Of a DNA stretch of 18,060 bases, positions 1,746-18,060 are shown piece after piece. Position 1 is the first letter of the stretch. Each line of letters begins with the position of its first letter. The notes below the pieces were generated by a model. It worked only from the letters and a program-made list of their open reading frames with translations. It ran no database searches and had not been told where the DNA came from. This DNA comes from a candidate division WOR-3 bacterium. Lineage in GTDB: Bacteria; Hydrothermota; Hydrothermia; LBFQ01; DSFT01. Location: assembly GCA_965649115.1 (NCBI GenBank), contig CBFGJN010000041.1, forward strand, positions 1-18,060, written 5' to 3'. The translations under genes and the position numbers were made by a program.

Positions 1746-1820
1746 TGCCTTGCCCAATAATTCTGAAAATATGATTATTTCTTATTTTTATCTTATTTCT
1801 CCATTAAAACCCCCTTCAAA
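1746..1820 (-). mobile_element. Degenerate fragment of the MITE family (one TIR plus internal remnant)
   Basis: tgccttgcccaataattctg matches the element end at 12931 (tgccttgtccaataattctg); ccattaaaacccc matches the interior of that copy. Confidence 0.7.
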
Positions 1821-1839
1821 TAAAAGGCTTGATTTTAAG

Positions 1840-6738: not shown

Positions 6739-6784
6739 TTTTGGGTCTGTAGCCCCCCGAGGCAAAAATAAGGCACCCTTTTAT

Positions 6785-6991
6785 TGCTTTGTCTAATAAT
6801 TATTGTTAAGTGATTGATAATCAATTACTTATAAAAAATTCATTGAAATACTTGAAATAATGGGGGGATTAAGGGGGGCTTTGCCCCCCCCCATAGCCTA
6901 AATATGGGAATTTGTAAGCCGAAGGCTTAATTACAGGGTGGGCGGGAAAAATAAGAAATAATCTATATTTTCAGAATTACTAGACAAAGCA
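6785..6991 (+). mobile_element. MITE-like element, full copy A (207 bp)
   Basis: TIRs tgctttgtctaataatt / aattactagacaaagca (16/17). Flanking 9-mers cccttttat (6776-6784) and tccttttat (6992-7000). No coding capacity. Confidence 0.9.
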
Positions 6992-7013
6992 TCCTTTTAT
7001 TATCTTTGAACTT

Positions 7014-7019
7014 TAAACT
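7014..7019 (+). promoter_or_regulatory. Putative -10 box of a leaderless promoter
   Basis: cttTAAACTtttaaagATG (7-nt spacer to ATG 7027). Confidence 0.55.
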
Positions 7020-7026
7020 TTTAAAG

Positions 7027-8790
7027 ATGCACAAAAGGATAATAGCTACTGATTGCGGAAGTACGACTACGAAAGCTATACTTATAGAAAAGCGAGAAGA
7101 CGGTTATAGACTTGTAGCAAGAGGTGAAGCTCCAACAACTGTTGAAAAGCCATTTGAAGATGTTACAATTGGTGTTAGAAATGCAATTAGTGAAATTGAA
7201 GAATTAACAAATAATAAATTTTTAGAAGATAGTAAAATAGTTAATGTTGATGCTTATGTTTCAACTTCTTCTGCTGGCGGTGGTCTTCAAATGTTAGTGA
7301 TGGGTGTTGTAAAAGAAATGACTGCTGAAAGTGCAGCAAGGGCTGCTCTTGGGGCTGGTGCTATTGTAATGGAAACAATTGCTATAAATGATGGTAGATT
7401 ACCTCATCAAAGAATTGAACTAATTAGAAAATTAAGACCTGATATGATTTTGTTAGCAGGTGGGACAGAAGGGGGAACAATTAAACATGTAGTAGAATTG
7501 GCACAACTTATAGTAGCTGCTGAACCTAAACCAAGATTTGGTTCATCTTACAAAATGCCTTTAATTTATGCTGGTAATAGCCAAGCTGTAAAGGAAATTG
7601 AAAAAATTTTAAAGGAAAAAACTGCTTTATATGTAGTTGAAAATATAAGACCTCAACTTGAAGTAGAAAATTTAGAACCTTCAAGAGAAAAAATTCACGA
7701 ATTATTTTTAGAACATGTTATGCAGCAAGCACCTGGTTATAATAAACTTATGGAGCTTGTAAGTGCTCCAATAATGCCAACACCTGGTGCAGTGGGTTTA
7801 TTAATTGAAAAAGTTGCAAAAGAACAAAATATAGAAGTCCTTGGAGTTGATATTGGAGGAGCAACAACTGATGTTTTTAGTGTTTTTAAAGGTAAATTTA
7901 ATAGAACTGTTTCTGCAAACCTTGGAATGAGTTATTCAATTGCAAATGTTATGGTTGAAGCTGGTATTGAAAATATAAAAAGGTGGATTCCCTTTGAAAT
8001 TGATGAATATGAACTAAGAAATAGAATAAGAAACAAAATGATAAGACCAACTACTATTCCTATGACATTAGATGACTTGATAATTGAACAAGCTATTGCA
8101 AGAGAGGCTTTAAAGCTTGCTCTTGAGCAACATAAGTTATTTGCCACTGAATTAAAAGGTATTCAAGTTAGAGGTGATATTACAAGGGCTCTACAACAAC
8201 AAATTGAAAGAACTCTTGTAAATATGATGACATTAAATTTGATAATTGGTTCTGGTGGTGTCCTATCTCATGCTCCAAGAAGAAGTCAATCATTTTTAAT
8301 GATGATAGATGCTTTTCAACCCGAAGGTATTACAAAATTAGCAGTTGATAGTATATTTATGATGCCTCATTTAGGAGTTCTATCTACAATAAATGAGAAA
8401 GCTGCATTTGAAGTGTTTGAAAGGGATTGCTTGATAAAACTTGGAACATGTATTGCTCCAAAGGGTTTAGAAAAAGATGGAAAAGTTATACTTAAAGCGG
8501 AGATTCATTATGATAATAAAACGGAAAGTTTAGAACTTAAATTTGGAGAATTGAAAGTTTTTCCATTGCCTGCTAATAAAAAAGCAAAAGTTGTTTTGTT
8601 TCCCCAAGCTGGTTTTGATGTCGGTGAGGGTCCTAATAAAAAAGTTATACAGGAGGTTGAGGGGGGTGTAGTTGGTATTGTATTTGATGGAAGAGGAAGA
8701 CCTTTGAGTATTAGCAAGGAAAAGTTAATTGATTGGTTCATTTCAATTAAAGCTTATAATGAGGAAAAATTAAAGGAAATTATAAAATGA
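7027..8790 (+). CDS. glmL: Glutamate mutase L (GlmL/MutL)-family ASKHA ATPase
   Basis: DCGSTTTK and DIGGATTDV phosphate motifs, APTTVE, SSAGGGL, AALGAGA, LAGGTEGG, RTVSANLGM, IGSGGVL. Start moved to ATG 7027 from TTG 7006. Confidence 0.8.
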   Translation: MHKRIIATDCGSTTTKAILIEKREDGYRLVARGEAPTTVEKPFEDVTIGVRNAISEIEELTNNKFLEDSKIVNVDAYVSTSSAGGGLQMLVMGVVKEMTAESAARAALGAGAIVMETIAINDGRLPHQRIELIRKLRPDMILLAGGTEGGTIKHVVELAQLIVAAEPKPRFGSSYKMPLIYAGNSQAVKEIEKILKEKTALYVVENIRPQLEVENLEPSREKIHELFLEHVMQQAPGYNKLMELVSAPIMPTPGAVGLLIEKVAKEQNIEVLGVDIGGATTDVFSVFKGKFNRTVSANLGMSYSIANVMVEAGIENIKRWIPFEIDEYELRNRIRNKMIRPTTIPMTLDDLIIEQAIAREALKLALEQHKLFATELKGIQVRGDITRALQQQIERTLVNMMTLNLIIGSGGVLSHAPRRSQSFLMMIDAFQPEGITKLAVDSIFMMPHLGVLSTINEKAAFEVFERDCLIKLGTCIAPKGLEKDGKVILKAEIHYDNKTESLELKFGELKVFPLPANKKAKVVLFPQAGFDVGEGPNKKVIQEVEGGVVGIVFDGRGRPLSISKEKLIDWFISIKAYNEEKLKEIIK

Positions 8791-9344
8791 TACCTATTTT
8801 AAAATCGCTTTTAATTCCTGGTTGGTCTCAATTTGATTTTGATAAAAGAAGTGCTTATCTTATGCTTTCTTCTGAAATTTTTTTGATTTCAACATATTTA
8901 TTTAAAACAAAGGAGGTAAATTTAATTGAAAGTCAATATAAGATATGGGCTTACAATTATTCAAATTGTGATAATTTCTCTGATAGTAGAATTTACCAAA
9001 TTATTGAAGATTTTTATAATAAGGAATTTTTTTTAATAAATCTTTACGATGAAGCAAGAAGAAGATATCCTGATGACCTTCAAGCACAGCAAAATTATAT
9101 AAATTTAAATAACATAAATGCCAATTGGCAGTGGAAAGATATTGAAACATTCTTTCATTACCAAGATTTAAGGTCAAATTATAGAAGAACCAAAGCATTT
9201 AGAGATATTATTGGTTTTACCATTATTGGCAATCATATTATTTCTGCTATTCATTCATTTTTATTTTATCCAAGAAATGATATTGAAATGAATTTTCTTC
9301 CTACTTATGATGGTTTTAAATTTCAAATTGTAAAGCATTTCTAA
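8787..9344 (+). CDS. Hypothetical, probably membrane-associated protein
   Basis: ATGA overlap with the upstream gene; N-terminal SLLIPGWSQ (SxxxPGxGQ-like motif) and hydrophobic segments. Confidence 0.8.
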   Translation: MIPILKSLLIPGWSQFDFDKRSAYLMLSSEIFLISTYLFKTKEVNLIESQYKIWAYNYSNCDNFSDSRIYQIIEDFYNKEFFLINLYDEARRRYPDDLQAQQNYINLNNINANWQWKDIETFFHYQDLRSNYRRTKAFRDIIGFTIIGNHIISAIHSFLFYPRNDIEMNFLPTYDGFKFQIVKHF

Positions 9345-10107
9345 TTACTTCTAACATTTCTTTGTGAAATTCTTCATTACAAGAACACAATAAATTACCA
9401 CTTTCAAAATAATTCTCTTTTCCTTCAAAATCACTAATAATTCCACCTGCTTCTTTTATAATAATTATTCCTGCTGCAATATCCCATTTGTTTAATTTAT
9501 ATTCCCAAAAACCATCAAATATCCCTTCTGCTAACATACACAAATCCAAGGCAGCAGAGCCAATTCTCCTTATTCCACTTGCATACTTACTAAAAGCTTT
9601 AAAAATTTTAACATAATCCTCAAGAATATCAAGTTCTCTATGAGGGAAGCCAGTTGCTAAAAATGAACCTCTTAAAGTTTTTCTTTTAGATGTCCAGATT
9701 TTTGAATTGTTTTTATATGAACCTTCATTTTTAACAGCATAATATAAATTTTCTTTAATTGGCTCATATACTACACCTAATATAATTTCATTTTTATATG
9801 ATAGGGCTATTGAAACACAAAAACTATCAAGACCTCTTAAAAAATTTTTAGTTCCATCAAGTGGATCTATGTACCATACATAATCGCTTTTACCAGTTCT
9901 ACCGCTCTCCTCGCAAATAATTTCGTGATCTTTAAAATGTTCAAGAATGTGGTTTTTTATGGCATTTTCACTTTCTATATCAGCTTTACTAACATAATCA
10001 TTATAGAATTTTTCATCAAATTCTATTTGTTTTTTAAAATAAAATTTAAGGATATTACCTCCAATATAAGCAGAAGTTATTGCAGTTTTAAGGAATGTTT
10101 TGATAAT
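9316..10107 (-). CDS. suhB: Inositol monophosphatase family protein (SuhB), ~263 aa, probable ATT or ATC start
   Basis: My translation of the open frame upstream of the tracked 77-aa ORF gives FLKTAITSAYIGG...DYVSKADIESE...ICEESG...WYIDPLDGTKNF...ATGFP...IRRIGSAALDL...WDIAAG. In-frame stop at 10138-10140. Confidence 0.92.
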   Translation of the reverse strand: MIKTFLKTAITSAYIGGNILKFYFKKQIEFDEKFYNDYVSKADIESENAIKNHILEHFKDHEIICEESGRTGKSDYVWYIDPLDGTKNFLRGLDSFCVSIALSYKNEIILGVVYEPIKENLYYAVKNEGSYKNNSKIWTSKRKTLRGSFLATGFPHRELDILEDYVKIFKAFSKYASGIRRIGSAALDLCMLAEGIFDGFWEYKLNKWDIAAGIIIIKEAGGIISDFEGKENYFESGNLLCSCNEEFHKEMLEVIRNALQFEI

Positions 10108-10112
10108 AAAAA

Positions 10113-10118
10113 ATTTTA
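10113..10118 (-). promoter_or_regulatory. Putative -10 box for suhB
   Basis: Minus strand reads gcttTAAAATtttttATTATCaaa, the same context as the other gene starts in the window. Confidence 0.55.
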
Positions 10119-10140
10119 AAGCGCATTGATGGAGTGTCTA

Positions 10141-10319
10141 TGCCTTGTCTAGTAATTCTGAAAGTCCTTATTTTTCTATGTTTTCTTACCCACTATGATA
10201 TTAAGCGGACGGCTTTAAAATAACCCAATCTTATGCCTTTGGGGGTAAAGCCCCCCATTAAAACCCACCTTTAATAAATTTTAATAAAATTTTTATAAAT
10301 CCATTTATTGGACAAATCA
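10141..10319 (-). mobile_element. MITE-like element, copy B (internally deleted, 179 bp)
   Basis: Ends tgccttgtctagtaatt / ttattggacaaatca. Flanking 9-mers gagtgtcta (10132-10140) and gtgtgtcta (10320-10328). Confidence 0.85.
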
Positions 10320-10334
10320 GTGTGTCTATTTTAT

Positions 10335-10467
10335 TATATTTTTCCCTCCCACCCTATGAATAAGCCTTCGGCTTATAAATACCCTTAAATAATGTTAAGT
10401 CCTTGAATATAGGGTGGATTGGAGAAATAAAGAAAAATAAATGATTTTAGAATTACTAGACAAAACA
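10335..10467. mobile_element. Two oppositely oriented MITE right-arm fragments (copy C)
   Basis: Reverse fragment cccaccctatgaataagccttcggcttataaataccc, then forward fragment atagggtgg...agaattactagacaaaaca ending at 10467. Confidence 0.8.
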
Positions 10468-10496
10468 GCCTGCCAACAATTTTCAACTTTAAAATT

Positions 10497-12026
10497 TTGA
10501 TACACTTGTTTATTCTTCCTTTCCATATTGATTCAATTTGGATTTTTAAGGATAGCTTAAATAAAGTTTTATTTATAAAAAGGGAAAATTTTAGTTATGT
10601 TTCTTCATTCACTAATGGAGTAGCAAGATTTAATATAAATGGAAAATGTAATTTTATGGACGAATGTGAGGGAGGTTATTGGGGAATAATTGATTACAAA
10701 GGAAACATATTATTAAATAATTTGGAGTGGGTAGGTGAATTCGTTGGTAATTATGCGATTTTCCAAAAAGGTTATAAATTTGGTCTATTAAGGAGGGATG
10801 GAAGAATAATTCTCCCTGCCAAATTAGATGAAATTATTATTGTTGATAGTAATTTTATTCTTTATAGAATTGGTAATAATTGGGGCATTGCAAATTCAAA
10901 AGGTTATGTTTTATATGAAGCTCAATTTAATAGTTTTATAAAAATTAATGATTCTTTATTTCTGGTTACAAAAGGTGGAGAATGTGATGTTTTTAACAGA
11001 TGTGAAGGTAATAAATTTGGAATTATCAATAAGAATGGGAATTTTTTAATTCCATTAAAATTTGATGGGATTGGTGAAATCAAGGACAGCTTTATTGAAG
11101 TTAGTTTAAATGACTTGTGGGGTTTGATGAAACTGAATGGAAAATTAATTATAGATATTAAATATGAAGATTTATTTTATTTATGTTCTTATGTTTGGTT
11201 TAAAGAGAATGGTAAATGGGGCCTTATGGACTTGAATAAAAAAATTTTAATAAAGCCTAAGTATTCTGCAATTAGTAGAATTGAAAATACAAACTTTATT
11301 AAAACGAAAATTGATGAAAAGTGGGGACTAATGAATTGTAAAGGAAAAGAAATTTTAAAAAACGAATTTGATAATATAAGTTATTTAAATGAAGGATATT
11401 TTATAATTGAAAAAAATAATTTGAGGGGTGTTGTTGATAGTGTTGGAAATTTGATTATTGATATAAAATTTAAAGATATAAGTTATGGGAATGGAAAATT
11501 CATTTTGTACGATGGTGATTATTGGAGATTTAAAAATATAAAGTTTAATTATTTAGAGTTTGTAAATGGTTTGCTTCTTGCCAAAAAAGATGGATTTTTT
11601 GGTATTATTGATACTAATGGTACTACTATAATTGACTTTTATTATGATAGTATTAGAGTTTTTAATAACTTCATTTTTGCTAAAAAATCAAATTATTGGT
11701 CATTATTTACTACGAAATTTGAAAAAATTTCTGAAAATATAGATAGTTTCGTTGTTTTTGAAAATTTTTTAAAATTTAGAAAGTTTGGAAAGTGGGGTTT
11801 AATCTCAAATAATGGTAATATACTGCTAAATGCTGAATATGATTATATTGATAGTTTAGATGCTAATGGACTTATTAGAATTGTTAAGGATGGATATTTT
11901 GGACTTTTCGATTTAAATAAGGGAATTATCTTGAAGCCAAAATATAAGTTCATTTATCGCTTTTATAAAAATGCCTATAAGCTTATAGAAGAAAATAGTT
12001 TTAATTATTTTATATATGAAAATTAG
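10497..12026 (+). CDS. WG-repeat-containing protein (start uncertain)
   Basis: Many repeats of the form K(W/F)G(L/I)(I/M)(D/N)xxGxxxxxxx(Y/F)D; two Cys-containing inserts (GKCNFMDECEGG, GECDVFNRCEGN). Confidence 0.88.
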   Translation: MIHLFILPFHIDSIWIFKDSLNKVLFIKRENFSYVSSFTNGVARFNINGKCNFMDECEGGYWGIIDYKGNILLNNLEWVGEFVGNYAIFQKGYKFGLLRRDGRIILPAKLDEIIIVDSNFILYRIGNNWGIANSKGYVLYEAQFNSFIKINDSLFLVTKGGECDVFNRCEGNKFGIINKNGNFLIPLKFDGIGEIKDSFIEVSLNDLWGLMKLNGKLIIDIKYEDLFYLCSYVWFKENGKWGLMDLNKKILIKPKYSAISRIENTNFIKTKIDEKWGLMNCKGKEILKNEFDNISYLNEGYFIIEKNNLRGVVDSVGNLIIDIKFKDISYGNGKFILYDGDYWRFKNIKFNYLEFVNGLLLAKKDGFFGIIDTNGTTIIDFYYDSIRVFNNFIFAKKSNYWSLFTTKFEKISENIDSFVVFENFLKFRKFGKWGLISNNGNILLNAEYDYIDSLDANGLIRIVKDGYFGLFDLNKGIILKPKYKFIYRFYKNAYKLIEENSFNYFIYEN

Positions 12027-12822
12027 TGGTTTTACTTTTTTGAGAAATGCTGTTTTAAATAATTATCCATTTTTGGCTTCCATTAAATCAATTTTACCAA
12101 TTGTTGATGAGTTTATTGTTGTTGTTTGTGATTCAGATGATGGAACATTAGAGTTAGTTAAAACTATTAATAATTCAAAAATTAAAATTATTCAAGCACC
12201 TTTTGTTTCAAGTGAAGATTGGGTTTATGCAAGATATACTAATTTAGCTTATTTTCTTTGTTCGGGAGATTGGTGTTTTTATATTCAGGCTGATGAAATT
12301 GTTCCCGAATGGGAACTTGAGAAAATTTATAATTGTATGGAAAAATTTTTTAAAGTTAAGGAAGTTGAAGGAATTTTATTAAATTATAGACATTTTTATG
12401 GAAGTTTTAGATATTATAGAATTGATAGAGGTTGGTATAGTAAGGAAGTTAGAATTATAAGGAATAACTTGAATATATATTCCTATAAAGATGCGCAAGG
12501 TTTTAGATTGTTAAAAGGCTCTAAATTTAGAAAATTAAATGTTGTTGATAGTAAGGCTTATATTTATCATTATGGTTTTGTTTTTAAAAATTTAAAACAT
12601 AGAATTTATAAAAATTGTAAAAAAGAATGGCTTTGTGAATACAACGATAAGCATCCAAAAGTTTTAGAAGATTATATTAAGAATTATAAAGATAATTTTG
12701 ACCCAAATAATTGTAATTATGAACTAAATTTTGAGAATTTTATAAAACTTTTTAAGGAATTCTTTGATAGTATAATCGGAAGGAGACTTTTTGAATATAA
12801 ACCTTATCGTGAAATTAAATAA
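12016..12822 (+). CDS. Glycosyltransferase family 2 protein
   Basis: SGFTFLRN, SIKSILPIVDEFIVV, SDDGT, GDWCFYIQADE (DxD-like), IYHYG. Confidence 0.88.
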   Translation: MKISGFTFLRNAVLNNYPFLASIKSILPIVDEFIVVVCDSDDGTLELVKTINNSKIKIIQAPFVSSEDWVYARYTNLAYFLCSGDWCFYIQADEIVPEWELEKIYNCMEKFFKVKEVEGILLNYRHFYGSFRYYRIDRGWYSKEVRIIRNNLNIYSYKDAQGFRLLKGSKFRKLNVVDSKAYIYHYGFVFKNLKHRIYKNCKKEWLCEYNDKHPKVLEDYIKNYKDNFDPNNCNYELNFENFIKLFKEFFDSIIGRRLFEYKPYREIK

Positions 12823-12823
12823 G

Positions 12824-12895
12824 CTGGGGCGGGAGGACTCGAACCTCCACTCGCGGCTCCAAAGACCGCTGTCCTGCCGATTAGACGACGCCCCA
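12824..12895 (-). tRNA. tRNA-Gln (anticodon TTG), CCA not encoded
   Basis: Minus strand TGGGGCG...GCGGT CT TTG GA GCCGC...GGAGG TTCGAGT CCTCC CGCCCCA G; complete cloverleaf with a U1-A72 pair. Confidence 0.97.
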
Positions 12896-12910
12896 AAGTA
12901 AAGCATTAAA

Positions 12911-12916
12911 ATTTTA
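12911..12916 (-). promoter_or_regulatory. Putative -10 box for tRNA-Gln
   Basis: Minus strand reads gcttTAAAATtttaatg, 15 nt before the mature tRNA 5' end. Confidence 0.55.
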
Positions 12917-12930
12917 AAGCATAAAGAAAT

Positions 12931-13135
12931 TGCCTTGTCCAATAATTCTGGAATTATTTATTTTTCTTTATTTTCCCACCCACCCTATATTCAAGGCTTC
13001 GCCTTTAAAATACCCATATTTCGGCTTTGGGGGGCGGAAGCCCCCCATTAAAACCCCCCTTAAATCAATAACTTCCTTAAAGCTTTTATAAATTATTGAT
13101 TATCAAGCATTTAACAATAATTACTGGACAAAGCA
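12931..13135 (-). mobile_element. MITE-like element, full copy D (205 bp)
   Basis: TIRs tgccttgtccaataatt / aattactggacaaagca; perfect 9-bp duplication taaagaaat at 12922-12930 and 13136-13144. Confidence 0.93.
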
Positions 13136-13144
13136 TAAAGAAAT

Positions 13145-13197
13145 TGCTGTTTATAATCTCCCTATTAAATCAAGAATTCCAATAAAATCTTTGAACA
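13145..13197 (-). mobile_element. Collapsed MITE remnant in tandem with copy D
   Basis: Starts tgctgt, ends aaca, contains ataatctccctattaaatcaa (element interior) and is followed by a third taaagaaat at 13198-13206. Confidence 0.6.
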
Positions 13198-13220
13198 TAA
13201 AGAAATTCATTTTCAAACTT

Positions 13221-13226
13221 TAAAAT
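13221..13226 (+). promoter_or_regulatory. Putative -10 box of the leaderless ispH promoter
   Basis: cttTAAAATtttgaaaATG (7-nt spacer to ATG 13234). Confidence 0.6.
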
Positions 13227-13233
13227 TTTGAAA

Positions 13234-14151
13234 ATGTCATTTAAAATATATTTAGCTAGACCGAGGGGTTTTTGTGCAGGTGTTGATAGAGCAATTGAAA
13301 TAGTTAGATTAGCAATAAAAAAATACGGAAAACCAATATATGTTAAACATGCAATTGTTCATAACAAATTTGTTGTTAAGGAGCTTGAAAAAGAAGGTGC
13401 TATATTTGTTGAAGATATAAATGAGATTCCAGATAATTCAATAGTTGTATTTTCTGCACATGGCTCACCTCCAAGTCATTATGAGATTGCTAAAAAGAAA
13501 AATTTAAAAGTAATTGATGCTACATGCCCACTTGTAAATAAAGTTCATAAGGAAGCTATTGAATTTGTAAAAAATGGATATTACATTATTTATGTTGGAC
13601 ATAAAAATCATGTTGAAGCAATAGGAATAAAGGGAGAGGCAGAAGACAAAATAGATATTATTGAAACAAAAGAAGAAGCATTAAATTATATTCCAAAATC
13701 TGAAAAATTAGCCTTATTAACTCAAACTACTTTAAGCGTTGATGATACAAAGGAAATAATTGATATTTTAAAAAAAAGATTTCCTCAAATTATCTTACCA
13801 AAGAAAGAAGATATTTGCTATGCTACACAAAACAGACAAGATGCAGTTAAAAGAATTGCTAAAATATGCGATGTTATTTTTGTTATTGGTTCAAAAGAAA
13901 GTTCCAATTCTAATAGATTAAGAGAAGTGGCAGAAAAATATGGCGCTAAATCTTATTTAATTGAAAGTTATGAATATATAAATGATAATTGGTTAAATAA
14001 TGTCAAGAATGTTGGAATTACATCGGGAGCATCAACACCTGAGATATTAGTTCAAAAAACAATTGATTACTTATTGGAGAGAGGCGGAGAGGAAGTTATA
14101 GAAATTGAAAATGCTATTGAAAGAATAAAATTTCAGCTTCCCAATATATGA
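13234..14151 (+). CDS. ispH: 4-hydroxy-3-methylbut-2-enyl diphosphate reductase
   Basis: PRGFCAGVDRA, IVHN, FSAHG, DATCPLV, QTTLS, DICYATQNRQ, SSNSNRL, GASTPE; all three Fe-S cysteines present. Confidence 0.99.
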   Translation: MSFKIYLARPRGFCAGVDRAIEIVRLAIKKYGKPIYVKHAIVHNKFVVKELEKEGAIFVEDINEIPDNSIVVFSAHGSPPSHYEIAKKKNLKVIDATCPLVNKVHKEAIEFVKNGYYIIYVGHKNHVEAIGIKGEAEDKIDIIETKEEALNYIPKSEKLALLTQTTLSVDDTKEIIDILKKRFPQIILPKKEDICYATQNRQDAVKRIAKICDVIFVIGSKESSNSNRLREVAEKYGAKSYLIESYEYINDNWLNNVKNVGITSGASTPEILVQKTIDYLLERGGEEVIEIENAIERIKFQLPNI

Positions 14152-14921
14152 GTGTTTTAACATTTAAAACAAAACTAAAAATTTTTATAATTAGTTTATT
14201 ATTCTTTTCATTTTTGATTGTATCAGCTATTGTTGTAGAATTTAACTTATTTAATTTAATTTTTGGCGTAGGTAGAATTTTTGATTTTTTATATGCTTTA
14301 ATGAAACCTAATTTTTCTTATTTTCCTATAATTTTCCAAAAACTTATGGAAACAATTAAAATTTCAATAATAGGAACTACAATAGCAGTTATTTTATCAT
14401 TCCCTTTTAGTTTTCTTGCTACAAATGTAGTTATGAAAAATAAAATAATTTATTATTTTTCAAGAATCTTTATGAACTTCATCAGAACAATACCAGATAT
14501 TGTTCTTGCATCAATTTTTGTTGCTATATTTGGAATTGGAGCTCTTCCTGGTATTTTAGCCATAAGCTTATTTTCTTTTGGAATAATAACAAAATTATTA
14601 TCAGAAGATATAGATGCTATTGACAAAAATCAGCTAGAAGGTGTAATTTCAACAGGTTCTAATACTATTCAAATGATTTATTTTGGAATAATTCCTCAAA
14701 TTTTACCAAATTTTATATCTTATAGTTTATATACATTTGAGGTAAATGTAAGAGTTTCAGTTGTTTTGGGTCTTGTAGGAGCAGGTGGAATTGGTCAAAT
14801 TTTGATAGAAAATATCAGATTAATGAATTATGAAAATGTTAGCATGATAGTTTTTATAACATTTTTAGCTGTTTTAATAATTGATACTACAAGTGAGAAA
14901 ATAAGGGAGAAAATTTTATGA
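14148..14921 (+). CDS. phnE: Phosphonate/phosphite ABC transporter permease PhnE
   Basis: RTIPDIV, FGIGALPGILA, KLLSEDIDAID, FEVNVRVSVVLGLVGAGGIG; ATGA overlap with ispH. Confidence 0.92.
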   Translation: MSVLTFKTKLKIFIISLLFFSFLIVSAIVVEFNLFNLIFGVGRIFDFLYALMKPNFSYFPIIFQKLMETIKISIIGTTIAVILSFPFSFLATNVVMKNKIIYYFSRIFMNFIRTIPDIVLASIFVAIFGIGALPGILAISLFSFGIITKLLSEDIDAIDKNQLEGVISTGSNTIQMIYFGIIPQILPNFISYSLYTFEVNVRVSVVLGLVGAGGIGQILIENIRLMNYENVSMIVFITFLAVLIIDTTSEKIREKIL

Positions 14922-15676
14922 GAAAGAGGAATTTTTTTATTTTGCTTGTTGTTATTATGGTTTATTATTGGGCTATAAGTTCAATAGATATTAATTTAAA
15001 TAGGATTGTAGAAGGTCTTCCAAGAGGTTTAATTATCATTAAAAGAATGTTTTTTAATTCTTTAAATTTACTATTTACGAATTTCTTTTTTGATATGTTA
15101 TTTGAAATGCTAAAAACTCTTGCAATTGCTTATTTTGGAACATTCATTGCATCTATATTAGCAGTTCCATTTGGTTTCTTATCTGCTGTAAATTTTTCAA
15201 GATATTCAAGGGTTTTTAAAGTTATCTTAAATTTCATTAGAACTTTTCCTGAAATTTTACTTGCTATTATATTTGTTAGTGTTGTAGGACCTGGGCCCTT
15301 TGCAGGTTCTCTTGCTATTGGAATTCATTCAATTGGTATGCTCGGGAAGCTATATACCGAAGCAATAGAGAATATAGATAAAGGAGTTATTGAAGCGGTA
15401 GATAGTGTAGGAGCAAATTTTTGGCAAAAATTCTTTTTTGGTATAATTCCACAAGTATTTGTTTATTTTTCTAATTATTCAATTTATAGATTTGAATTAG
15501 CTTTAAGAAGTGCTACAATTGTTGGAATGGTTGGAGCAGGAGGAATAGGAACTCAATTAATTTTAAAAGTTCAGAATAGAAGTTGGGAACAAGTTGGAAT
15601 TATCATAATTATTATAATAATTACCGTTGCTATTGTTGATTTTGTTTCATATCAAATAAGAAAAAGGCTTGTTTAA
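14918..15676 (+). CDS. phnE: Phosphonate/phosphite ABC transporter permease PhnE (second subunit)
   Basis: RTFPEI, VGPGPFAG, GMLGKLYTEAIENID, FELALRSATIVGMVGAGGIG; ATGA overlap. Confidence 0.92.
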   Translation: MRKRNFFILLVVIMVYYWAISSIDINLNRIVEGLPRGLIIIKRMFFNSLNLLFTNFFFDMLFEMLKTLAIAYFGTFIASILAVPFGFLSAVNFSRYSRVFKVILNFIRTFPEILLAIIFVSVVGPGPFAGSLAIGIHSIGMLGKLYTEAIENIDKGVIEAVDSVGANFWQKFFFGIIPQVFVYFSNYSIYRFELALRSATIVGMVGAGGIGTQLILKVQNRSWEQVGIIIIIIIITVAIVDFVSYQIRKRLV

Positions 15677-15689
15677 AAGGAGGTTAAAA

Positions 15690-16378
15690 ACAGTGTAAAG
15701 ATGGGCAAAAAAAGATTCAAGAAAGGATAAATAGTATAGCCGATAGACTTCTTGAATTTCTATTTCAAGTTTCAAGTAAGGATATAATAAGGAATGTTTA
15801 AAATCAATTTTGAAGGAAATAGAAAGCAATTTGCTCAAAAAATTGGAATTTAACTGAGAAATGTTTAAGGTCCGAGTTTAGAGCAATTGGTATTAAGGAG
15901 GCAATATTCATTTGTCCTGAAAGGATTTATAATCAAGATTATGCTGATATTTTGTTTGAAAAAGTTGTTATTCACGAGCTTGTTCATGCTTATATTAAAG
16001 AAAAATCCATATTACAAATATGATTTTGGCAGAGTTATTGAAGAGAGTTTAGCAAATGCTATTGCTTTTATTCACTTTAAAGGTTATGAAAGGAATGTTA
16101 TTTCAGAGTTCATAAATAATCAACCAGTGGAATATCAAGGTTGCTATTTTTGGTTAAAATTTTTAGACCAAACTATCCTTCAATTTCTTGAAATATGGAA
16201 AAGAAATGTTTATTTTTTAGATCATTTAAGGTATTTTGAAGATTGGCATTTTGAATTATTTCTTTTAAGAAGATTTAACGGTTATGTCCAAGCAATTTTA
16301 AGCCCTTACTTTCCTTGGCTTTTCCCGCCTCATTTGATTAATAGGAATATGGAACCAATTTATAAATTGCTTGCTTAG
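15690..16378 (+). pseudogene. Frameshifted HExxH zincin-like metalloprotein gene
   Basis: One frame gives IFICPERI...KVVIHELVHAYIKE (His at 15973). A +1 shift in the A5 run at 16001-16005 joins NPYYKYDFGRVIEESLANAIAF. More breaks lie upstream. Confidence 0.7.
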
Positions 16379-16389
16379 CCTATATTTTA

Positions 16390-16484
16390 TGCTTTTTCTA
16401 ATAAACAGGGGGGCAATGGGTATTTATAAGCCGTAGGCTTTAAACATAGAAAAATAAATGATTTCAGAATTACTAGACATAGCA
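16390..16484 (+). mobile_element. Internally deleted MITE copy E (95 bp)
   Basis: Ends tgctttttctaataa / aattactagacatagca; retains atgggtatttataagccgtaggctt. Confidence 0.8.
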
Positions 16485-16493
16485 CATCATTTA

Positions 16494-16697
16494 TGTTTTG
16501 TCCAGTAATTATTGCTAAATGCTTGATTATCAATGACTTACGAAAATTTCAATAAAACTATTGATTTTATGGGGGATTATAGGGGGGCGAAGCCCCCCAT
16601 AGCCGAAAAATGGGTATTTATAAGCCGAAGGCTTATTCATAGGGTGGGTGGGAAAAATATAGAAAAACATATGTTTCCAGAATTACTAGATAAGGCA
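16494..16697 (+). mobile_element. MITE-like element, full copy F (204 bp)
   Basis: TIRs tgttttgtccagtaatt / aattactagataaggca; perfect 9-bp duplication catcattta at 16485-16493 and 16698-16706. Confidence 0.93.
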
Positions 16698-16718
16698 CAT
16701 CATTTAAAACTTATCCTT

Positions 16719-16724
16719 TAAAAT
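16719..16724 (+). promoter_or_regulatory. Putative -10 box of a leaderless promoter
   Basis: cttTAAAATttcaatATG (6-nt spacer to ATG 16731). Confidence 0.55.
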
Positions 16725-16730
16725 TTCAAT

Positions 16731-17000
16731 ATGGCAAAGAAGAAAAAAATTAAAAAAGAAGAAAAGCCAAGAGTTGTAGAAATAAAAGCGTACGGTGATA
16801 CAAAAGAAGAAATTGAAGAATTTACAAGGAGGGAATGGGAGGCAAGGAAGGAAATAATGGAGAGAGGACATGACCCTGAATTTTGGAAAGAAGTTTATGA
16901 AGAATTTTTTAAAGAACCATTTCCTTACCCCGAAGAAAAGGATATGAAAAAAATAGATGAGATATTTGACAAAAAACACAAAGAATTTTTTGAAAAATGA
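16731..17000 (+). CDS. Small, highly charged hypothetical protein (89 aa)
   Basis: MAKKKK start, purine-rich coding-like composition, -10 box just upstream; no family recognised. Confidence 0.7.
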   Translation: MAKKKKIKKEEKPRVVEIKAYGDTKEEIEEFTRREWEARKEIMERGHDPEFWKEVYEEFFKEPFPYPEEKDMKKIDEIFDKKHKEFFEK

Positions 17001-17044: not shown

Positions 17045-17234
17045 TACTTTGTCCAAGAAATGGCTTTAAATACTTAATTATCAAAAACTTGTAGTTGATT
17101 GTCAATGACTTGTAAAATTTTTAAGAAAACTATTGATTTAATGGGGAGTTTAATTGGGGGGCTTCACCCCCCAGAGGCATAAGAATGGGAATTTATAAGA
17201 AATAATCATATTTTCATAATTATTGGACACAGCA
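17045..17234 (+). mobile_element. Degenerate MITE copy G
   Basis: Ends tactttgtccaa / aattattggacacagca; internal ggggggcttcacccccc and gaggcataagaatggg; no clear TSD. Confidence 0.8.
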
Positions 17235-17467
17235 TATAATCTAACAAATTAAACAATAACTTAATTAAACAAATTCTAAAATACTTATAAAAAATCATTT
17301 TTATTAACTTGATAATTTAAAGGCAATTTTAACCCTTTAATTTTAATTTAAATAAAGACTTTTTTCTAATAAATCAAATTAATTTTATTTTAATTAGATA
17401 AATTAAGATAAAAAGCTAATAAATTGATAAATTGAAAATTTAATCATTTTTCAATGTAGAAAGGTAT

Positions 17468-17532
17468 AGCCTTTAAAATTCTCATATTTCGGTAGGGAGC
17501 TTCGCCCCCTAATAATCCCCCCAACTAATAAC
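17468..17532 (-). mobile_element. Internal MITE fragment H
   Basis: gcctttaaaattctcatatttcgg...gcttcgccccctaataatcccccc aligns with the interior of copy D. Confidence 0.65.
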
Positions 17533-17544
17533 TCCACTTTTTTC

Positions 17545-17748
17545 TGCTTTGTCTAGTAATTATTGTTAGGTCTTTGATTATCAACGACTTATAAAAATTT
17601 TAAGAAAATTATATATTTCACGAGGGGTTTTGAGGGGGGCAAAGCCCCCCAAGGCATAAGAATGGGGATTTATAAGGCGAAGCCTTATTTTCAGGGTGGG
17701 TGGGGAAAATAAGAAAAATAAATAATTTCCGAATTACTGGACACAGCA
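17545..17748 (+). mobile_element. MITE-like element, full copy I (204 bp)
   Basis: TIRs tgctttgtctagtaatt / aattactggacacagca; flanking 9-mers acttttttc (17536-17544) and aattttttc (17749-17757). Confidence 0.92.
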
Positions 17749-18060
17749 AATTTTTTCTTGTCTTAAAAAATCAAATTAAAATTTTTTTAAATTGATAAAT
17801 TATTAAATTTTATTTTTTAAAATAATTTTTATAAATTGACTTTTTAATTTGCTAAATTAAGGCATAAATTAAATAACTTATTGATTATCAATAATTTAGA
17901 CCTTGTCACAAACCCCCCTCTTTTTTAAAAATTTCCATTTTTCAAAACTTTAATTTTAATCAGGCAAATTAAAATTTAGTATTTATAAGGAATTTAGATA
18001 TATTTTAAGTTATTGGTTTTCAATAACTTATAAAATTTTTTATTTTAAAAGCTTATCAGA

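Follow-up and report, generated by a model that had tools for sequence, protein, structure and literature searches.

The stretch of DNA considered here (the window; 18,060 nucleotides (nt), the whole of contig CBFGJN010000041.1, or C41) belongs to assembly GCA_965649115.1 (G000) of a candidate division WOR-3 bacterium, and it raises the question of how a short mobile element comes to stand, copy after copy, at the same distance from the promoters of different genes. [quoted passage not shown] The original prediction, made from the window alone, held that its ends lie 22–24 bp upstream of -10-like boxes, that its 9-bp targets have no sequence in common and that the right end faces the gene. Our analysis bears out these three statements and makes it very probable that an IS5-type transposase and the MITE choose their target by distance and orientation from a promoter, and not by the sequence that is cut.

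Spacing and orientation of element ends across the genome

Throughout, d denotes the distance obtained by subtracting the position of the last element base from that of the first T in the hexamer TAAAAT, and boxes were sought across G000 as CTTTAAAATTT, allowing no more than one mismatch. The assembly contains 458 complete MITE right ends: 7 at contig ends, 133 followed by the next copy within 40 nt, and 318 that are free. Among the free right ends, 188 form a far register at d = 21–24 (135 at 23, 46 at 22, 5 at 24 and 2 at 21) and 59 a near register at d = 13–17 (31 at 15, 13 at 16, 8 at 14, 5 at 17 and 2 at 13), while 13 lie at other distances and 58 have no box at this threshold. For positions outside both open reading frames (ORFs) and MITEs, the chance of meeting the first T of a box was 0.0065 at 21–24 and 0.010 at 13–17. 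The free left ends (n = 131) gave no peak, with 4 at 21–24 and 5 at 13–17. The genome-wide histogram of end-to-box distances that had been proposed as a check on the window thus shows a sharp peak at 22–24 nt, and for right ends only. Expressed against the motif, a right end in the far register stops 19 nt upstream of CTTTAAAATTT.

The DNA that is cut offers no comparable regularity. Information in the 9-bp targets amounts to 0.0–0.1 bit per position genome-wide, in line with the original prediction, and since the nine duplicated bases together with the next 10 nt carry 0.0–0.4 bit per position, the cut site has no consensus. The sister species G002, whose genes are about 88–90% identical to those of the window, was sampled over 391 kb; 17 of its 42 right ends lie at d = 22–24, 11 at 13–16 and 12 inside stacks of copies, and none of 32 left ends was found at 22–24 or 13–16.

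The element family and its target duplication

G000 comprises 1.85 Mb in 99 contigs with a GC content of 27.6% (completeness 94.5%, contamination 0.3%). A profile trained on 104 full copies (nhmmer; model length 206 nt) gave 738 matches in this assembly, covering 96.7 kb or 5.2% of the genome, and 208 of the copies are full-length. Of the DNA outside ORFs of at least 100 amino acids (aa), 86.7 of 206.7 kb (42%) is MITE. The terminal inverted repeats, read from the sequence and from the hidden Markov model consensus, begin with TGCTTTGTCC on the left and end with GGACAAAGCA on the right, and the right arm of the consensus is A-rich. In 95 of 189 full copies the flanking 9-mers agree at 8 or more of 9 positions, compared with 4 of 189 after shuffling, and because this is far above the shuffled level we regard the repeats as a MITE that duplicates 9 bp of its target. 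The features by which a MITE is recognised are all present, namely terminal repeats, a duplication of fixed length, a short, non-coding and multicopy body, and ends held in common with an autonomous element. ORFs of at least 50 aa that overlap the copies in the window are short (53–133 aa) and are probably chance frames, and in an Rfam scan the MITE fitted no family, the sole match in the window being a transfer RNA (tRNA).

The box as a putative host promoter motif

Outside the MITEs, G000 contains 2,052 CTTTAAAATTT boxes, and in 845 cases an ORF of 60 aa or more follows within 60 nt. In 538 of these 845 the start codon lies 6–11 nt past the hexamer, which is the spacing that leaderless or near-leaderless transcripts would show, and the box is accordingly read here as a putative promoter. 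Among 558 boxes of promoter type, 249 (45%) are occupied by an element and 309 have none within 30 nt; the sequence logo of these 309 lacks a -35 element and has only a weak T-rich stretch just before CTTTAAAATTT. At 247 occupied boxes, for which ATT, ATC and ATA were also accepted as starts, the start codon lies within 12 nt in 213 and at 13–60 nt in 26. A scan of the window with the sigma-70 consensus returned 74 sites, against 67.5 ± 7.8 in shuffled sequence.

The box is native to the host and separate from the element. It is kept without an adjoining MITE at the glmL, suhB, ispH and small-ORF orthologues in the same-genus genomes G001, G003 and G004, and a search for the MITE in G001 and G004 found none. 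The original prediction had assumed that the boxes do not travel with the element; these orthologues, and the lack of boxes at junctions within stacks, uphold that assumption.

One of these genes has an unusual beginning. In the suhB-like gene (inositol monophosphatase family; 9345–10104, minus strand), ATG, GTG and TTG are all absent from the neighbourhood of the promoter box; its frame begins ATT ATC, 5–8 nt past the hexamer, and ATA stands at the matching place in the G001 and G004 orthologues, so that from its sequence the gene looks like a case of a non-canonical start on a near-leaderless transcript.

Comparison of G000 with G002 gave 101 orthologous promoter pairs: in 39 neither promoter is occupied, in 38 only that of G000, in 12 only that of G002 and in 12 both. 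Only where both are empty does identity across the duplication zone exceed the level of chance, and the conserved examples among those pairs are ones in which gene or tRNA sequence overlaps the upstream DNA. The divergent suhB and WG-repeat genes provide a further contrast between the two species: on contig C83 of G002 (loci L011 and L019) their boxes abut as the palindrome aaattttaaagctttaaaattt with zero spacer, whereas in G000 the interval between the boxes consists of about 20 bp, MITEs and about 21 bp. Occupancy turnover, the mismatching 9-mers of many copies and this difference at suhB together suggest rapid gain, loss and recombination at element sites, for which reason clean empty sites are rarely available.

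Stacks of copies

At 90 of the 133 junctions where one right end is followed closely by another copy, the spacer is exactly 9 bp, and the 9-mer is often repeated (aataatata occurs three times on contig C19). Almost every stack examined runs head to tail and has the promoter on the side of the right ends, and no box was found at the junctions inside stacks, where the 9-bp spacer stands alone. Adjacent full-length pairs resemble each other too little to be tandem duplications (17 of 33 could be aligned, with a median identity of 75% and none reaching 95%), so the stacks represent separate insertions. Promoter-proximal members are full-length in 51% of cases (n = 182), as against 20% of the other stack members (n = 272), and their best match elsewhere in the genome is closer (88.8% versus 86.6%; n = 33, p = 0.04). 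These differences are what would be expected if new copies enter the regenerated 9-bp site at the promoter side.

The autonomous insertion sequence and its transposase

Two non-MITE sequences carrying the MITE terminal repeat occur in G000 about 100–126 nt from contig termini, at 16 and 10 contig ends respectively. Judged by their sequence and position, these are the opposite ends of an insertion sequence (IS) whose interior is unassembled in G000. A search of G000 with PF01609 and PF13737 for an autonomous copy gave no match, and pairs of element ends lying 500–4000 bp apart in G000 enclose host genes alone; no autonomous copy was found there because the interior of the IS is unassembled and its ends occur only at contig termini. 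An exact 43-nt pattern from the IS had no match in metagenome contigs, and when the 236-nt left end was compared with 64 genomes of the class, matches outside G000 were limited to the terminal repeat. Matches to DDE_Tnp_1 in the sister genus (G005, G006) were set aside, as they lie in DNA whose translation shows a GC-rich bias and no end of the element type was found beside them.

The left end of the IS (G000 contig C93, positions 1–236; locus L067, minus strand) contains a host-type box, GATTTAAAATTTT, 53–65 nt inside; the ATG of the transposase follows 6–8 nt after the box hexamer and opens 56 codons. With such a box inside its left end, the IS uses the same type of promoter as it targets. 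Searching with the 56 residues led to P0001, a 300-aa metagenome protein that shares 92–96% identity with the N-terminal fragments found at contig ends of G000, and whose last 14 residues equal the reading frame entering the right end of the IS in G000. The cognate transposase sought by the original prediction was thereby traced, through both of its termini, to the IS5 family: the bit scores of P0001 are 88.9 against PF01609, 73.5 against PF13737 and 245.5 against the IS5-family model NF033579 (cut-off 140; positions 2–288 of 289), and its identity to ISVa1 and ISAba10 is about 30%. We take the element type to be the IS903 group of the IS5 family in ISfinder terms.

In the alignment of their left ends, IS and MITE are clearly alike only over the terminal 26 nt or so, and the IS sequence inside the right inverted repeat (IRR) is G-rich, unlike the A-rich right arm of the MITE. 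The spacing is nevertheless shared: of 16 IRR junctions of the IS, 10 have d = 23, one has d = 22 and 3 meet another copy after 9 bp, and none of the 10 junctions of the left inverted repeat (IRL) has a box. Related IS (61–88% identity) on other metagenome contigs provided 7 IRR junctions, 5 of them at 22–23, one at 15 and one abutting an element. The boxes targeted by these relatives include the variants CTTTATACTTT, CTCTATAATTT and CTTTAAACTTT, with the distance to the hexamer unchanged. One relative at 61% identity (L080) has 922 bp between its ends.

The minor register

In the near register, at d = 15, the element end is followed by 9 bp and then TGCTTTAAAATTT; stack junctions have the same geometry, with 9 bp and then TGCTTTGTCC, the next left end. 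TG precedes CTT in 17 of 31 cases at d = 15, compared with 40 of 188 at d = 21–24 (Fisher p = 0.0002), and in only 2 of 28 at d = 13, 14, 16 and 17. One d = 15 flank (contig C15) is conserved in an empty site of G002, which shows the minor register to be real and not the product of later deletion. Full copies retain intact duplications in 12 of 26 cases in the near class and 47 of 83 in the far class; deletion after insertion fits the near class poorly, given those 12 copies. The start-codon offset is equal in both classes.

Another candidate cause of the 15-nt class was examined and dropped: a second TTTAAAA core 7–8 nt downstream is present in 10 of 59 near and 12 of 188 far cases (p = 0.02) and explains little. 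The separate idea that the flanks consist of old element tails was rejected, as only 3 of 188 do.

Copies and boxes in the window

The five end-to-box distances on which the original prediction was built were re-read as 23, 23, 23, 22 and 24. The first belongs to a full copy at 6785..6991 (plus strand; model positions 1–206, placed by nhmmer and by sequence) whose right end faces glmL; it is flanked by the 9-mers CCCTTTTAT (6776–6784) and TCCTTTTAT (6992–7000), which are identical at 8 of 9 positions. The putative glmL promoter box, CTTTAAACTTT (7011..7021, plus), has its hexamer T at 7014, giving d = 23 from 6991, and the glmL ATG at 7027 follows 7 nt past the hexamer; the box is also present in G001, G003 and G004, without the MITE. 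A near-full copy at 10141..10319 (minus; model 7–206), with the 9-mers GAGTGTCTA and GTGTGTCTA beside it, turns its right end at 10141 to suhB, whose predicted box (10111..10121, minus) has its hexamer T at 10118 (d = 23). Next to it nhmmer placed two partial pieces, at 10325–10386 (minus; model 119–180) and 10401–10467 (plus; model 140–206), the right end of the second (10467) facing the WG-repeat gene, where the candidate box (10487..10497, plus) has its hexamer T at 10490, again at d = 23.

The full copy at 12931..13135 (minus), with the target duplication TAAAGAAAT at 12922–12930 and 13136–13144, has its right end at 12931 towards tRNA-Gln. The likely tRNA promoter box (12909..12919, minus) is preceded by TG and has its hexamer T at 12916, so that d = 15. 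The original prediction gave the same distance for this copy and treated it as an exception; the distance was right, but the copy belongs to the minor register, which takes in 59 of the 318 free right ends. Immediately beyond lies a 53-bp stretch (13145..13197, plus), a probable MITE remnant seen by direct reading of the sequence and missed by the nhmmer profile, followed by a third TAAAGAAAT at 13198–13206 and ending at d = 24 from the ispH box. Its position suggests the remnant of a second insertion, probably in the opposite orientation, into the same 9 bp as the 12931..13135 copy. The presumed ispH box (13218..13228, plus) has its hexamer T at 13221 and the ATG at 13234, 7 nt past the hexamer, and is present in the G001, G003 and G004 orthologues.

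A small stack stands before an ORF of 89 aa. Its distal member is truncated at the 5' end (16415..16484, plus; model 118–206) and is followed by the 9-mer CATCATTTA (16485–16493), then by a full promoter-proximal copy (16494..16697, plus) whose target duplication is completed by CATCATTTA at 16698–16706. The putative promoter box of the ORF (16716..16726, plus) has its hexamer T at 16719, 22 nt from the right end at 16697, and its ATG at 16731; the upstream flank of the ORF aligns in part with MITE-free G003 and G004.

Four further copies lie elsewhere in the window. These are a degenerate copy at 17093..17235 (plus; nhmmer 17093–17199, model 28–133, with a right-end 17-mer ending at 17235), a partial copy at 17460–17599 (minus; nhmmer), a full copy that overlaps it at 17545–17748 (plus; nhmmer, right end 17748) and a partial copy at 1746..1829 (minus; nhmmer, model 138–206, right end 1746). 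No promoter box was found downstream of the right ends at 17748, about 17235 and 1746. A shared AT-rich motif, aaattgataaatt(a/g)ttaaatttt, follows two box-less right ends, in the window at 17786–17830 and on G000 contig C33 near 4111, and may be part of another repeat family.

Other features of the window were also noted. The ORF at 3–1718, open at its 5' end, contains a perfect 212-nt direct repeat (357–568 and 972–1183) and a third, 74-nt copy that is 77% identical (1530–1603); by its layout the repeat resembles the conserved regions that occur in duplicate in restriction specificity subunits. Between 15690 and 16380 the frames are interrupted by stops, and the ORF at 15887–16378 contains the HExxH-like VIHELVHAY, so this region may be a decayed metallopeptidase-like gene.

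Alternative explanations

A fixed distance could in principle arise from selection acting on near-random insertions, either because the survivors are those that spare genes and promoters or because the A-rich right arm is kept as a phased UP element, the latter having been offered as an alternative in the original prediction. The compactness of the genome speaks for it, as most insertions elsewhere would be harmful with only 206.7 kb lying outside ORFs of at least 100 aa, and the A-rich arm itself speaks for the UP-element version. Selection, however, predicts a lower bound with a tail, and 181 of the 318 free right ends lie at exactly 22 or 23 nt with only 11 at 25–90. Later copies could have landed harmlessly anywhere in the first, yet the same 9-bp site is reused; one end of the element alone adjoins promoters; and the IS, with its G-rich interior, stands at the same 22–23 nt, which makes the UP element in particular a poor fit. 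We consider selection of either kind a very unlikely source of the spacing, which from these patterns would have been set at insertion. Constant spacing would equally be expected if the box were part of the mobile unit and the element carried an outward promoter, and the IS does have a host-type box within its left end, but that box serves its own transposase. A 9-bp duplication separates the element end from the target box, the 19 nt between end and box vary among copies, junctions inside stacks are box-less, orthologous genes in same-genus genomes have the box without a detected MITE, and no element lies near 309 of the 558 promoter-type boxes, so that a carried promoter is hardly credible. 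A hybrid promoter formed with the -35-like TGGACA or TAGACA in the element end was also considered and discarded, the 27 bp to the hexamer being too far.

The transposase might instead be attracted to its own left tip, TGCTTT, so that stacks would form where the duplication of a new copy adjoins a left end already in place, with promoters reading TGCTTTAAAAT mimicking an element end and so giving rise to the 15-nt class. This accounts for the identical geometry of TGCTTTAAAATTT at d = 15 and TGCTTTGTCC in stacks, for the excess of TG before CTT at d = 15, for the conserved flank on contig C15 and its empty G002 counterpart and for the intact duplications of near-class copies. It cannot produce the major class, in which flank positions 10–15 at d = 23 are unlike TGCTTT; the other near distances rarely have the TG; and the decayed members of stacks are the distal ones, which points to new copies coming in on the promoter side. 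As a general explanation we think it improbable, though attraction to element ends may contribute to the minor register.

Targeting by distance from the promoter has its own difficulties, and the following points weigh against it. The interior of the IS is unassembled in G000, and the transposase sequence is that of a near-identical metagenome protein. Of the 318 free right ends, 58 are box-less, and a looser search recovered boxes at the expected distances for 9 of these. About half of the full-length copies genome-wide in G000 lack matching flanking 9-mers, which suggests that recombination or turnover among copies is common. For the most part, sequence upstream of the box could not be aligned between G000 and G002, doubly occupied pairs included, and true empty sites are few. 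Both the promoter role of the box and the targeting, as opposed to filtering, of insertions are deduced from sequence. Lastly, in the variant in which polymerase is the guide, an insertion at about -35 would lie awkwardly under sigma region 4 of the bound enzyme.

Proposed mechanism

Under promoter-measured targeting, the 206-bp MITE would be mobilised in trans by an IS5-family IS with a 300-aa DDE transposase and a 9-bp duplication. The transpososome would be placed with the right inverted repeat 19 nt before CTTTAAAATTT, equivalent to 22–23 nt from the first T of the hexamer, or, in the minor register, 8 bp nearer the promoter, the orientation being constant in both. The cut, staggered by 9 bp, would have its centre about 20 bp from the hexamer, with the right end proximal. 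Since the putative promoters lack a -35 element and would drive leaderless or near-leaderless genes, insertion at about -35 would spare both the promoter and the upstream gene. The duplication would regenerate the site, which could therefore be hit again, and repeated insertion would build head-to-tail stacks in which older, decayed copies are displaced from the promoter.

As to the guide, it could well be the DNA of the box read by the transpososome; promoter-bound RNA polymerase with its sigma factor is a possibility that we hold with less assurance, direct reading being somewhat likelier because the cut falls where sigma region 4 would sit. P0001 spans the family model and has no extra domain, so the specificity would reside in an ordinary transposase or in a host partner. 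We tentatively propose that an IS5 transposase of ordinary size may read the promoter (as sigma-RNA polymerase on -10-only promoters or as the CTTTAAAATTT duplex) and cut about two helical turns away, a form of promoter homing that might have evolved separately from that of the Mutator-like TnGBS enzymes.

Relation to known systems and significance

Measuring the insertion site from a nearby recognised feature, with its safe-harbour logic, recalls Tn7, which uses the targeting protein TnsD to enter attTn7, a single site per genome, in fixed orientation with a 5-bp duplication, and the retroelement Ty3, which is guided by TFIIIB and TFIIIC to the start sites of RNA polymerase III. The element described here shares the fixed orientation of Tn7 and is unlike it in having an ordinary-size transposase (2–288 of a 289-position model) and hundreds of sites.

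The closest parallel in mode of action, though not in membership, is found in TnGBS, ISLre2 and elements of the ISKra4 group, which are reported to insert 15–17 bp upstream of -35 boxes in one orientation, the IRR lying beside the promoter (PMC3942029). In that paper RNA polymerase is suggested as the guide by analogy with Ty3, and a gene-sparing strategy is proposed (PMC3942029). Common to those elements, as so described, and to ours are a DDE transposase, many promoters, a fixed distance and a single orientation with the IRR promoter-side. The differences lie in the transposase, which is Mutator-like (p-MULT) in those elements whereas P0001 matches only IS5-type and DDE_Tnp_1-type models (Pfam, NCBIfam); in the point of reference, which in the TnGBS account is the -35 box, whereas here the end lies 19 nt before a -10-type motif of promoters without a -35 and the cut falls at about -35 itself; in the second register 8 bp closer, seen here; and in the MITE derivative, which here makes up 5% of the genome and stands on 45% of box-type promoters.

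With regard to type of element, ISAba12 and MITEAba12 offer the nearer comparison, and are reported to have GGCTTTGTTG-type ends, 9-bp duplications and a preference for AT-rich targets (PMC6382973). In both cases a short non-coding derivative would be moved in trans by an IS with a single transposase gene, of about 1 kb there and probably here; the ends are GGCTTTGTTG-type in the ISAba12 relatives tabulated in that paper and TGCTTTGTCC here, and duplications are intact in 40% of MITEAba12 copies as reported there and in about 50% here. For MITEAba12 the paper reports no positional or sequence rule, whereas here the promoter distance and the orientation are fixed.

The IS5/IS903-type family is usually described as low in target specificity, and in a search of the literature outside subscription journals no account was found of an IS5-family element or a bacterial MITE whose insertion is measured from a promoter. 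The present case would be a second, evolutionarily independent instance of promoter homing among bacterial DDE transposons. With a small transposase and a simple motif, the measurement of promoter distance by the transpososome could be tested in vitro, and the element ends mark putative promoters of this uncultured lineage at single-base resolution. The stacks, at 42% of the non-ORF DNA, may account for the rapid change of upstream sequence from one sister species to the other; if our reading is true, they would remodel the upstream DNA of nearly half the promoters in the genome.

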